From: an uncultured Gemmatimonadales bacterium
Lineage (GTDB): Bacteria; Gemmatimonadota; Gemmatimonadetes; Gemmatimonadales; Gemmatimonadaceae
Direction of reading: 5' to 3'
DNA length: 64,000 nucleotides
NCBI GenBank assembly: GCA_963701965.1
Contig: OY969695.1
Location: 2,752,001-2,816,000, forward strand
Positions within the stretch are counted from its first letter, which is position 1. Each line of letters starts with the position of its first letter. The translations under genes were made by a program, and so were the position numbers. Positions 85-52,831 of the stretch are shown in pieces. The notes under the pieces are model-generated. The model did no database searches and was not told the DNA's origin. It worked only from the letters and a program-made list of their open reading frames with translations.

Positions 85-2016
85 CTATCCGCGCTTCGCG
101 AGCAGAGCCCGCTTCGACGCGATCACTGCCATCAATGCGTGCCACGACTCGACGAACGCCGCCGCCCCATCCTTCTGCAGGCGGGCGGCGAGCGCGTGGA
201 TGTCCGTCCCTTCCGCGGCGAACCGCGCCAGTACAACGTCCGCTTCCCCGCCGTCCGCCCGCATGAGTGTCGGGACGTCGCCGTGCTCCGCGAGTTCGGT
301 CAGCGTGCCCTCGGGCATCGTGTTGACGGTGAACGGCGCGGCCAGCGCTCTGACATAGAACAGTTTGGATACGCCCGGATCCTTGCTCGCGGTGCTGGCC
401 CAGAGCAGCCGCTGGGGCCGCGACCCGGCGTTGTAGATGCGCTGCCAACGGGGCGAGGCGAGGAGCGAGCGATACGCCTGGTACGTGCGCTGGGCGACGG
501 CGAGGCCGAGCCGGTTGCGGAGCGCGGCGGGTACTGTGTCGGCGACGGCGGCGTCCCACCGGCTCACGAACACGGAAGCCACGGAGCTCACGTCCGGCTT
601 GAGGCCCGCATCCAGCCGGCGCTCGATGCCGCGGAGAAACGCCTCGGCCACCGCGAAGTAATGTTCGCGGGAGAACAGCAGCGTCGCGTTCACGGGGATG
701 CCGGCAAAGATGACCTCCTCGATCGCGGGCAGCCCTTCGCGCGTCGCCGGGATCTTGATCATGAGATTCGGCCGGTTCGCGCGCACGAAGAGATCTTTGG
801 CCGCCGCGACGGTGCCGGCTGTGTCGTAGGCGAGGAGCGGCGACACCTCGAGCGACACCCAACCATCGACATCATCGGTCCGATCGTAGATCGGGCGCAA
901 CACATTGGCGGCGCGCCTCAGATCATCGATGGCGAGGTCGAAAAACACTTCCTCGTCGGTGGCATCCGTCATGCGCGCCTCGGCGATCGCCACGTCGTAT
1001 GCCTGGCTCGTGGTGATGGCCCGCTCGAAGATCGTGGGGTTGGACGTGAGGCCGGTGACGGACAGGTCTTTCACGTACCGCGCGAGCGTGCCACTGGTCA
1101 ACAAGTCGCGCGTGATGTTGTCGAGCCAGAGGCTCTGTCCCAGCCGGTGGAGTTGGCCCGTGGCCCGCGTCGCCGGGCCGCGAGCGGGCGCGGCGCGTGG
1201 AAGGATGTACTGGACCACCGCGTCGGCGAATCCTTCGTCCTCGTACGAAGTCGTGACGACGTTCGCGTGCCGCTTGACCTCGTCACTGGCGTTGCCCATC
1301 GCAATGCTGAGCCCACTCCGCTCGAACATGGCGATGTCGTTCAGCTGGTCGCCGAGCGTGGCGATCTGCGCCAACGGTATCTTCAGATACCGCGACAGGC
1401 GCGTGATCGACGAGCCTTTGTTGGCCGCCGGGTGGGTCACGTCGAGGTAGTGCGGCTGGGATCGCACGGCAGTGACCTGCGTGCCGAACTCCTCCTGGAG
1501 GGCTCGCTCGCACGCCGCGACGCGATCGTGGTCGAGGCTCGCACCGACGATCTTCACGATGCCCGTCAGCACATCGTCGAAACTCGGCACCACCGTCGGC
1601 GCAAACTGGACGGTCGAGGTTTCCCGGTCGACGCGCGGGGCTTGGGCGTCGCGCACATACCACTGCGTCGCGGAGTAGAGCCACACGTCGATGCCATGCG
1701 ACTCGATCGCCTCGACGAGCGCGGGGAGCAGATAGTCCGGGATCGCCAGCTGATCGAGGAGGGAAAGATCCGGGAGCACGATGGCCCCGCCGTTGAAGGC
1801 GGCCATCGGCATGGTCAGCCCGAGGGGCTCGACGAGCATTTGCAGGCCGCGGGGCGGCCGGCCACTGGTGATGGCGAAGATGATCCCGTTGTCCCGCATC
1901 CGCTGCACGGCCTGTTTGGCGCGGTCAGTGATCACCTTCTCCTTCGTGACCACCGTACCGTCGACGTCGGCCAAGAGGGCAGCGATTGCAGGGGAGCCCG
2001 GGGTGGAAACGGCCAT
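85..2016 (-). CDS. tal: Cof-type HAD phosphatase / transaldolase fusion
   Basis: N-terminal DVDGT, TSGR, GDQLND..MF and AMGNA HAD-IIB motifs; C-terminal GQSLWLDN, GLTSNPTIF, MIKIPAT, NATLLFS and QRLLWAST transaldolase motifs; start set at MAVST. Confidence 0.9.
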   Translation of the reverse strand: MAVSTPGSPAIAALLADVDGTVVTKEKVITDRAKQAVQRMRDNGIIFAITSGRPPRGLQMLVEPLGLTMPMAAFNGGAIVLPDLSLLDQLAIPDYLLPALVEAIESHGIDVWLYSATQWYVRDAQAPRVDRETSTVQFAPTVVPSFDDVLTGIVKIVGASLDHDRVAACERALQEEFGTQVTAVRSQPHYLDVTHPAANKGSSITRLSRYLKIPLAQIATLGDQLNDIAMFERSGLSIAMGNASDEVKRHANVVTTSYEDEGFADAVVQYILPRAAPARGPATRATGQLHRLGQSLWLDNITRDLLTSGTLARYVKDLSVTGLTSNPTIFERAITTSQAYDVAIAEARMTDATDEEVFFDLAIDDLRRAANVLRPIYDRTDDVDGWVSLEVSPLLAYDTAGTVAAAKDLFVRANRPNLMIKIPATREGLPAIEEVIFAGIPVNATLLFSREHYFAVAEAFLRGIERRLDAGLKPDVSSVASVFVSRWDAAVADTVPAALRNRLGLAVAQRTYQAYRSLLASPRWQRIYNAGSRPQRLLWASTASKDPGVSKLFYVRALAAPFTVNTMPEGTLTELAEHGDVPTLMRADGGEADVVLARFAAEGTDIHALAARLQKDGAAAFVESWHALMAVIASKRALLAKRG

Positions 2017-43326: not shown

Positions 43327-43331
43327 TGCGA

Positions 43332-43363
43332 AAAGTCTCCGAGGAGAAATCCTCGGAGACTTT
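43332..43363. terminator. Perfect 14-bp hairpin; likely bidirectional terminator between ada and the minus-strand tRNA cassette
   Basis: AAAGTCTCCGAGGA-GAAA-TCCTCGGAGACTTT. Confidence 0.85.
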
Positions 43364-43384
43364 CACTACGTGGTGGAAATTAAC

Positions 43385-43415
43385 CACGCCGGCTTGACAA
43401 GTGCCACGAATGTAT
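43385..43415 (-). repeat. Anti-anticodon box of cassette 1
   Basis: 43389-43402 is the exact reverse complement of 43505-43518 (anticodon arm); context CATAcATTCgtGGCAC-N12-CGTGG. Confidence 0.85.
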
Positions 43416-43461
43416 GCAATCGCACCGGCGCGGTCAACCGGTAGTTTGGCGCTAACTAGCG

Positions 43462-43545
43462 TGCCCGGAGCGGGACTCGAACCCGCACGACCTCGCGGTC
43501 GCCGACTTGTCAAGCCGGTGTGTCTACCAATTCCACCATCCGGGC
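43462..43545 (-). tRNA. Type II tRNA with tRNA-Leu body and GAC (Val) anticodon
   Basis: GCCCGGA TG GTGG AATTGGTAG ACAC A CCGGC TT-GAC-AA GTCGG CGACC-GCGA-GGTCG T GCGGG TTCGAGT CCCGC TCCGGGC A. Confidence 0.9.
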
Positions 43546-43654
43546 ACTCTTCGCGATGGACGGAATTGGATGTTGCGACACGAGCTTCGACTGTCGTTCG
43601 CCACTAGCTAGCGGTGGCGAATCTCGCGCTACGTGAGGCGCGCGTCGTCATCGT
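43546..43654 (-). ncRNA. Conserved structured leader of tRNA cassette 1
   Basis: Blocks shared with 52484-52588: ACGATGACG, ATTCG, CGCTAGYTAGTGGCG, CGTGTCGCARCATCCARTT and AGAGT. Confidence 0.65.
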
Positions 43655-52483: not shown

Positions 52484-52588
52484 ACGATGACGGCTAGCGG
52501 CTCGAAGTGGAGATATTCGAGTCGCTAGTTAGTGGCGTGCAATGAGTGAGCCCGTGTCGCAGCATCCAGTTTCATCCGCGTGTAGAGT
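52484..52588 (+). ncRNA. Conserved structured leader of tRNA cassette 2
   Basis: Homologous to the reverse complement of 43546-43654. Confidence 0.65.
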
Positions 52589-52672
52589 GCCCGGATGGTG
52601 GAATTGGTAGACACGGCAAACTCGCAAATTGCCGACCGTAAGGTCGTGCGGGTTCGAATCCCGCTCCGGGCA
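52589..52672 (+). tRNA. Type II tRNA with tRNA-Leu body and CGC (Ala) anticodon
   Basis: GCCCGGA TG GTGG AATTGGTAG ACAC G GCAAA CT-CGC-AA ATTGC CGACC-GTAA-GGTCG T GCGGG TTCGAAT CCCGC TCCGGGC A; A31-A39 mismatch. Confidence 0.88.
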
Positions 52673-52710
52673 CGCTAGCTAGCGCCACATTGCGCGTCGC
52701 TTCCTGGTTT

Positions 52711-52743
52711 CATAGATTCAAGGCACTTGCGAGTTTGCCGTGG
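52711..52743 (+). repeat. Anti-anticodon box of cassette 2
   Basis: 52727-52742 TTGCGAGTTTGCCGTG is the exact reverse complement of 52612-52627; context CATAgATTCaaGGCAC-N12-CGTGG. Confidence 0.88.
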
Positions 52744-52776
52744 CGAGCCCCGGGGAGAGATCCTCGGGGTTCGTTT
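52743..52776 (+). terminator. Terminator-like hairpin after cassette 2
   Basis: GCGAGCCCCGGGGA-GAGA-TCCTCGGGGTTCGT (with GU pairs) followed by a short T run. Confidence 0.7.
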
Positions 52777-52795: not shown

Positions 52796-52831
52796 TTGAC
52801 TTTCGGGATATCTTCGGGTAGCGTTAGAGCG
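52796..52831 (+). promoter_or_regulatory. Sigma70 promoter for a probably leaderless radical SAM gene; TTCGGG-N5-TTCGGG repeat in the spacer
   Basis: TTGACT-17 nt-TAGCGT; GTG start 7 nt after the -10. Confidence 0.6.

Follow-up and report, generated by a model that had tools for sequence, protein, structure and literature searches.

A leucine-type tRNA with an alanine anticodon and a complementary small RNA: a candidate RNA-only toxin-antitoxin cassette in Gemmatimonadota

tRNA-ProX of Streptomyces and Kitasatospora combines the body of one amino acid with the anticodon of another, and its function in the host is stated to be unknown (PMC11415595). Allo-tRNAs have 8/4 or 9/3 folds and adjoin toxin-antitoxin (TA) genes (PMC5389517, PMC7609411). 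They are likewise missense tRNAs, carry diverse anticodons and are toxic in E. coli (Mukai et al., PMC5389517), where serine-inserting allo-tRNAs caused growth arrest and death (PMC5389517). RNA toxins also feature in type VIII TA systems (PMC10767807, PMC11951105).

The locus described here lies in a window of 64,000 nucleotides, the whole stretch of DNA that was analysed. It is a cassette of about 290 bp, all RNA, read as a leader, a tRNA with a leucine body and the alanine anticodon CGC, a sigma70-like promoter, an antisense segment and a terminator (Table 1). It has neither the proline body nor the co-encoded dedicated synthetase of tRNA-ProX, and the acceptor branch of its tRNA belongs to a 7/5 fold, not to the 8/4 or 9/3 type of allo-tRNAs. 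Sequence prediction gives two adjacent RNA genes and no protein, as in type VIII systems. With a rough probability of 0.7, we read the cassette as an RNA-only TA pair in which a leucine-inserting tRNA would be silenced by a self-pairing leader and by an anti-anticodon small RNA. In its family, which occurs in soil bacteria, a predicted complementary small-RNA gene nearly always adjoins the tRNA, and a proteome-scrambling toxin with an RNA antidote therefore seems likely. We hold it nearly as probable, if slightly less so, that such cassettes form a new RNA-only TA class in Gemmatimonadota and Planctomycetota, in which a fully functional tRNA toxin would corrupt the code at the commonest codons of its host, be stored as a self-silenced precursor and diversify together with its anticodon-aimed antidote into insulated specificities.

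The tRNA gene and its host genome

The gene is a real tRNA gene, with a 7/5 leucine body and a CGC anticodon. ARAGORN called tRNA-Ala(cgc) at 52589-52673 and Rfam RF00005 matched 52589-52672 with 51.6 bits; over the whole cassette, only the tRNA reached an Rfam gathering score. The 84-nt RNA has a canonical 7/5 class II tRNA fold, with C2:G71 and C3:G70 in the acceptor stem, A14 A15, G18 G19 and U20 A20a G21 in the D arm, U33, A37 and a mismatched A31/A39 in the anticodon arm, and U48 and A73. CCA is not encoded, as is the case for many ordinary tRNAs of this genome. The earlier note had listed the anticodon, A73, A15:U48, G18G19, A20a, G21, C3:G70 and the A31-A39 mismatch; all are read in the sequence, and the mismatch may weaken decoding. 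It had also described a 5-bp variable arm with a GNRA loop. The loop (GUAA) holds, but the stem has 4 bp and one unpaired base before U48, the register of true Leu tRNAs (51/55 family members, 29/30 Leu controls), and it becomes 5 bp only if C44 pairs in the arm rather than with G26. Contigs from three DNA runs did not span the anticodon of this copy. A sequencing error there is still very unlikely, because three genomes of the same genus have CGC at the orthologous site and the antisense segment further downstream contains its complement.

tRNA-Ala is identified by a G3:U70 pair, which is absent here and occurs in 1 of 55 family members. A73 and U48 are present in all 55. The family search pattern partly imposed A14A15, the D-loop motif and R37, not A73, U48, C2:G71 or the arm geometry. 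E. coli LeuRS recognizes its tRNA through A73, A15:U48, G18G19 and A20a without the anticodon, and C2:G71 is an antideterminant against SerRS (PMC9976931). The gene carries this bacterial tRNA-Leu set in full (A73, A15:U48, G18G19, A20a, a long variable arm and C2:G71) together with an anticodon that is not a leucine anticodon. Of 84 positions, its body shares 50-60 with the six Leu tRNAs of the genome and 42 with the ordinary Ala(CGC) tRNA. These features support the leucine-type identity that had been proposed from the letters, by rules that derive from E. coli and may not be those of this phylum.

The host genome, a single 5.1-Mb contig, holds three cassettes that join a leucine body to a non-leucine anticodon (CGC, CGC and GAC), alongside ordinary tRNAs for leucine (six), Ala(CGC) and Val(GAC). 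The second CGC copy lies 245 kb from the first, and a profile search of the genome returned no fourth copy or remnant. There is a single leuS. GCG, said at the outset to be very common, ranks first and makes up 6.6% of the 1.25 million codons counted over 3058 genes from a rough gene call; the codon bias may be partly a product of GC-rich mutation. In seven ortholog alignments, GCG stood opposite alanine at 139 of 210 positions and GCC at 95 of 154, and leucine was not among the six commonest residues facing GCG. The 13 anticodons observed in the family read 8 of the 9 commonest non-leucine codons in the genome (hypergeometric p=9e-6), a value that is indicative only, the ranks coming from one genome and GC bias lying outside the model.

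Table 1. Predicted features of the two cassettes in the window, and loci with leucine-like bodies that lie outside the family
Feature	Position or locus	Strand	Remark
Weak promoter of the tRNA precursor (-35-like ATGACG, -10-like GATATT, 19-nt spacer)	52487..52517	+	inferred
Leader 5' end, closing helix with the 3' trailer directly after A73	52523..52535	+	MFE and centroid folds
Part of the leader complementary to the 5' half of the tRNA	52539..52578	+	predicted block to cloverleaf folding
tRNA, Leu identity elements, anticodon CGC (Ala)	52589..52672	+	predicted toxin
3' trailer CGCTAGCTAGCG, pairs with the leader 5' end	52673..52684	+	12 nt after A73
Sigma70-type promoter of the small RNA, TTGCGC-17-TAGATT	52690..52718	+	predicted
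Small RNA of about 53 nt, proposed antitoxin	52724..52776	+	predicted
Antisense segment of the small RNA	52727-52742	+	exact complement of tRNA nt 24-39, 16/16 Watson-Crick pairs
Terminator-like GC-rich hairpin and short U tract	52743-52776	+	fold of the small RNA 3' part
Second cassette, Leu body with Val anticodon GAC	43331..43613	-	same family
tRNA of the GAC cassette	43462-43545	-	
Small-RNA promoter of the GAC cassette, TTGACC-17-TACATT	43437-43409	-	reported by the promoter scan
Antisense segment of the GAC cassette	43402-43385	-	
Terminator of the GAC cassette	43363-43331	-	
Leu-like bodies with stop-reading anticodons	L100, L121, L131, L150, L156, L161, L163, L170, L171, L178, L186		
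Leu-like bodies with stop-reading anticodons, viral	L064, L076, L080, L085, L091		
Leu-like bodies, anticodon ACC	L093, L117, L126		Saccharibacteria; without antisense
Leu-like bodies, anticodon TGG	L096, L101, L160		without antisense
Leu-like bodies, anticodon GTC	L113, L143, L157		without antisense
tRNA shapes with unpaired acceptor ends	L102, L104, L116, L119, L130, L146, L167, L169, L185, L192		

Leader, small-RNA unit and antisense specificity

A leader of about 65 nt precedes the tRNA, and the flanks are common to all three copies in the genome. Leader, tRNA and trailer were predicted to fold as a rod (z=-4.7, MFE and centroid), and the predicted probability of the acceptor stem was 0.00 in the precursor versus 0.97 in the mature form. 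A GTGTC box of the leader pairs with the 3' strand of the D stem and a CCAG box with the D loop. Across an alignment of 22 members, pairing held in 96.4% of the 220 cells of these boxes and 14 cells were compensatory, neither value being reached in 500 shuffles and slid controls giving 20-42% paired; the subgroup was picked for similar leaders, and kinship inflates these statistics. For the same 22 rows, the consensus structure given by RNAalifold was the cloverleaf rather than the leader rod. Over the wider family, sequestration by the leader was predicted in 64% of 45 members versus 48% of 31 ordinary Leu tRNAs in the same test. Leader/trailer pairing gave -14.9 kcal/mol for cognate and -12.0 for non-cognate pairs (n=45, the cognate being best in only 7), versus -10.5 and -10.9 in Leu controls, and pairing of the leader to the anticodon arm was unspecific (cognate best in 3/45). 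A first whole-family leader test placed the cognate best in 1/45 and was uninformative on specificity because the D arm is conserved. The predicted sequestration is well supported within the 22-member subgroup, and only there. The predicted precursor promoter is the weakest part of the cassette annotation: the consensus promoter scan did not report it at 52487..52517, its motif order is repeated upstream of paralogs and orthologs, and three loci (L033, L050 and L031) have better -10 boxes.

Downstream of the tRNA, a second promoter is predicted to start the small RNA. The promoter and terminator scan gave nothing at the CGC copy 52589-52672 and one promoter at the GAC paralog; the small-RNA promoter falls below the scan threshold at the former and its counterpart is the one reported at the latter, and the terminator scan did not report the hairpin. 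The part of the tRNA matched by the antisense segment comprises the 3' strand of the D stem, the 5' anticodon stem and the whole anticodon loop. In the family, a strict TTGAC-type promoter accompanies 39/55 members versus 0/31 Leu tRNAs, and in 29 of those 39 the antisense starts 5-7 nt past the -10 box. The antisense covers the whole anticodon in 51/55; in most Planctomycetota cases it is aimed at the 3' anticodon arm and the variable arm.

Specificity was computed for 55 members, selected for having the unit, and 31 Leu controls. The mean antisense:tRNA duplex was -42.9 kcal/mol for cognate versus -27.1 for non-cognate pairs, and the cognate duplex ranked best in 39/55 and among the top three in 49/55 (0/31 and 1/31 in the controls). 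For each of the three predicted small RNAs of the genome, the best-ranked target among 62 tRNA calls is its own tRNA. The two partners also vary together at fixed sites. At a site after mutS, four genomes carry the anticodons CTC, CGC, CGC and CAC with a matching antisense each time; at a Ro60/RtcB site, the anticodon is GGA or GGC, again matched in each; and at the orthologous site of the 52589-52672 copy, four genomes keep CGC on four different stems, which the antisense follows. Among positions of the duplex that are not Watson-Crick, G-U outnumbered A-C by 42 to 17 (p=0.0015), suggesting that the antisense pairs with the tRNA at the RNA level.

At one locus, L136, the unit lies about 200 nt upstream of both of its tRNAs, with the order promoter, antisense, terminator kept. 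Positions 953-1573 of this locus hold two tandem cassettes (CAC and CGC), each with the antisense unit 5' of its tRNA. Because it has been transposed upstream there, the unit appears to be a movable gene of its own. At L166 (about 1490-1573, minus strand), the tRNA has lost the integrity of its 5' acceptor strand, and the small-RNA unit beside it is intact, possibly an orphan antitoxin.

Census and neighbourhood of the family

The kin search was a DNA search of 61 genomes, from which 30 loci and 20 further regions, of 71 matches, were taken in; these genomes are not independent of one another. A strict pattern that excluded A35 anticodons was positive in at least 10 of 401 genomes of the phylum. 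Pattern scans of other sources added 31 loci from viral contigs, at least 120 from GTDB and 6 from metagenomes, the last not being independent since their pattern held the promoter and the antisense seed. The family has at least 13 anticodons, some with A34 (AGC, AGG), a feature shared with tRNA-ProX.

Groups in the census were defined by origin and not by presence of the unit. Among the matches listed, 35 of 37 Gemmatimonadota tRNAs with a leucine body and a non-leucine anticodon had both a downstream antisense and a promoter-like site, the other two being those of L136, with the unit upstream; none of 24 true Leu tRNAs in the Gemmatimonadota comparison had both. Planctomycetota had the downstream unit in 7/9, other named lineages in 0/35 Leu-like odd-anticodon tRNAs, and GTDB loci without a lineage name in 11/31 (each among the matches listed). 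The finder missed 26 of the at least 120 GTDB loci; 23 of these were inspected, and the unit was found at two, L137 (the same locus as L008) and L166. By antisense score, 2/14 viral loci were positive. A score of 12 was reached by 0/308 tRNA calls from 125 loci of viruses and plasmids (among the matches listed) versus 34/37 in Gemmatimonadota. When viral sequences were scanned for the promoter motif downstream of a tRNA of any kind, none of the matches listed had an antisense unit; 10 plasmid records matched the tRNA part only, and the 4 inspected held ordinary tRNAs. Two viral contigs, L067 and L078, carry leucine bodies with GCC anticodons and a downstream antisense that matches the variable arm and the 3' anticodon arm; phages or prophages may be vehicles of the module. 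Family and Leu rows were intermixed in a tree built from 65 columns of 86 bodies, with the anticodon arm removed, which is too weak for questions of origin or monophyly.

Several other kinds of leucine-like tRNA turned up in the scans (Table 1). Bodies with the stop-reading anticodons TTA, TCA and CTA occur in several phyla and in phages without an antisense unit, and could be nonsense suppressors or parts of recoded genomes. Bodies with Gly, Pro or Asp anticodons had no antisense within 400 nt. Bacillota, Bacteroidota and other groups have odd-anticodon shapes whose acceptor ends do not pair, perhaps a separate class of tRNA-like RNA or remnants of integration.

The genes around the cassettes examined are ordinary chromosomal ones, and neither mobile elements nor defence genes recur consistently beside them. 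Among 74 nearest-gene proteins scanned across loci, we found no shared neighbour, no synthetase and, at E<=1e-12, no Cas family, and thus nothing of the CRISPR-Cas link of CreTA. The gene after the terminator is convergent at 25 of 42 loci, co-directional at 16 and uncalled at 1. In L007 (1508-1591) and L040 (2182-2265), a cassette (GGA or GGC) lies antisense in the gap that separates RtcB from Ro60/TROVE genes, the usual place of Y RNAs.

Next to the CGC cassette are genes for an S9 peptidase and for a radical SAM protein of the repair type, which resembles TIGR03916 below the cut-off; the gene that follows the cassette is co-directional and has a promoter-like site of its own. Inside the promoter-like site of the radical SAM gene, at 52796-52824 (+), there is a repeat, TTCGG-N6-TTCGG, a candidate SOS box that occurs 16 times in the genome; the genome has two lexA genes, and one of them has the repeat twice in its upstream region. 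SOS control of the three tRNA promoters was not supported, the LexA-box-like repeat being at the neighbouring repair gene and not at those promoters. A hidden peptide toxin was rejected: over the 55 members there is no conserved reading frame, none being open across the cassette in more than 25.

Proposed mechanism, rival readings and known systems

In the mechanism that we propose, a weak promoter would yield a precursor whose leader pairs with the D arm and the 3' trailer, so that the tRNA would be stored misfolded and mature slowly; the pairing is supported by covariation, and its effect on processing would follow from it. Once refolded, processed and CCA-added, the tRNA would be leucylated by the single housekeeping LeuRS, if the E. 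coli rules apply. The small RNA, for which complementarity and specificity were computed, would begin to pair at the anticodon loop, extend into the stem by strand invasion and leave the tRNA inactive. Loss of the small RNA or a stop in its transcription (cassette loss, phage shut-off or stress) would then lead to Ala-to-Leu errors at GCG and to growth arrest. We thus infer transcription of both RNAs, leucylation, leucine insertion at GCG, toxicity and rescue. The earlier note had pictured a lone tRNA causing broad mistranslation; it is instead a member of a multi-copy family, in which 13 or more anticodons occur, and carries two predicted silencing elements. Constitutive mistranslation from the CGC tRNA is unlikely because the leader and the antisense small-RNA gene appear to be dedicated silencers.

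The genetics look TA-like: the cassettes are patchy and multi-copy, have no common protein neighbour and include the unit beside a broken tRNA at L166, and several insulated copies per genome with fast anticodon turnover and private antisense resemble TA dynamics. Against an addiction role stand the lack of a consistent mobile neighbour and of any cassette among the plasmid matches; against the TA reading as a whole stand the 35 odd-anticodon tRNAs of other named lineages, none of which, among the matches listed, has a downstream unit.

The strongest rival, which we consider unlikely, is regulated beneficial mistranslation, in which the small RNA tunes a low dose and the proteome is diversified under stress without arrest. 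The structural evidence fits it equally well, tRNA-ProX has been proposed as deliberate mistranslation (PMC11415595), and some of the neighbouring genes have stress or repair roles (repair radical SAM, UvrA, MutS, Ro60/RtcB, Hsp20, topoisomerase IB). Most neighbours, however, are unrelated housekeeping genes, the LexA-box-like repeat is not at the three tRNA promoters, and the patchiness, insulated copies, anticodon turnover and private antisense just described point to TA behaviour. Still less probable is a non-translating mimic or decoy (anticodon-nuclease bait, or a LeuRS or EF-Tu sponge) whose level the small RNA sets. A 31:39 mismatch of the A31/A39 type in 7/55 members versus 0/30 Leu tRNAs would suit a decoy, as would the translational inactivity of some allo-tRNAs near TA genes (PMC5389517); but the cloverleaf is conserved with compensatory changes at 16 of 25 consensus pairs, U33 is kept in 52/55 and A73 in all, and the antisense is aimed at the anticodon in 51/55.

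We think it improbable that the unit senses tRNA and attenuates the gene downstream of it, or that the tRNA-shaped RNA is an antisense regulator like the phage C4/CI RNA. Complementary segments do lie on both sides of the tRNA, and the next gene at the CGC locus is co-directional. That gene has its own promoter-like site, however, the unit lies upstream of the tRNA at L136, the next genes have no function in common, and the convergent next gene at 25/42 loci argues against an attenuator, which was rejected on these orientation counts. An antisense acting only in cis within a long read-through precursor, with an incidental promoter motif, is slightly more improbable again. The full transcript does fold with the antisense segment paired to the anticodon arm (z=-4.5), and cis pairing may add to silencing, but the promoter motif stands at a fixed distance in 39/55 versus 0/31, and the unit moved upstream at L136 has a terminator of its own. 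Reassignment of GCG to leucine, or an assembly error or pseudogene, has nothing beyond the odd anticodon in its favour and can be dismissed: the genome has an ordinary Ala(CGC) tRNA, the ortholog alignments contradict reassignment and show GCG still to be alanine, and orthologs retain CGC on stems that differ but are re-paired.

If the TA reading is true, cells carry tRNAs meant to break the genetic code together with a dedicated RNA off-switch, which would offer a testable answer to why natural mistranslating tRNAs persist without host death. It would also add small-RNA control of a tRNA via its anticodon, a description of which was not found in the literature searched, and a protein-free, reprogrammable switch of about 290 bp for mistranslation studies. 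Annotation based on anticodons mislabels genes of this family as Ala, Val, Arg, Asp and others.

A tRNA/anti-tRNA module was not met in the literature searched, mainly open-access, and is apparently undescribed so far. tRNA-ProX has a proline body and its own synthetase, whereas the present tRNAs have a leucine body, a single leuS and no dedicated synthetase; the accessible part of PMC11415595 mentions no antisense partner, whereas here at least 13 anticodons come with a small-RNA gene. Allo-tRNAs have Sec-like 8/4 or 9/3 folds and mostly serine identity, in contrast to the canonical 7/5 leucine fold here, and the word "antisense" occurs 0 times in the main and supplementary text of PMC5389517. 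In type I systems such as hok/Sok (PMC8594479), there is likewise long-distance 5'-3' silencing in cis and a short antisense RNA with its own promoter, but the toxin is a peptide and the antisense overlaps it on the opposite strand; the present cassette has no conserved frame and a non-overlapping unit on the same strand. CreTA and SdsR-RyeA of type VIII likewise have a toxin and an antitoxin that are both RNA and lie within 200 bp, here on the same strand (PMC10767807). CreT is reported to sequester tRNAs and CreA needs CRISPR-Cas, whereas the toxin proposed here would be a working tRNA neutralised by anticodon pairing; SdsR and RyeA lie on opposite strands, unlike the two RNAs of the CGC cassette (PMC10767807). 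By analogy, the logic of the cassette mirrors that of type I, with an RNA toxin as in type VIII. If toxic, the cassette would formally be a type VIII TA system, with a mechanism unlike that of CreTA or SdsR-RyeA.
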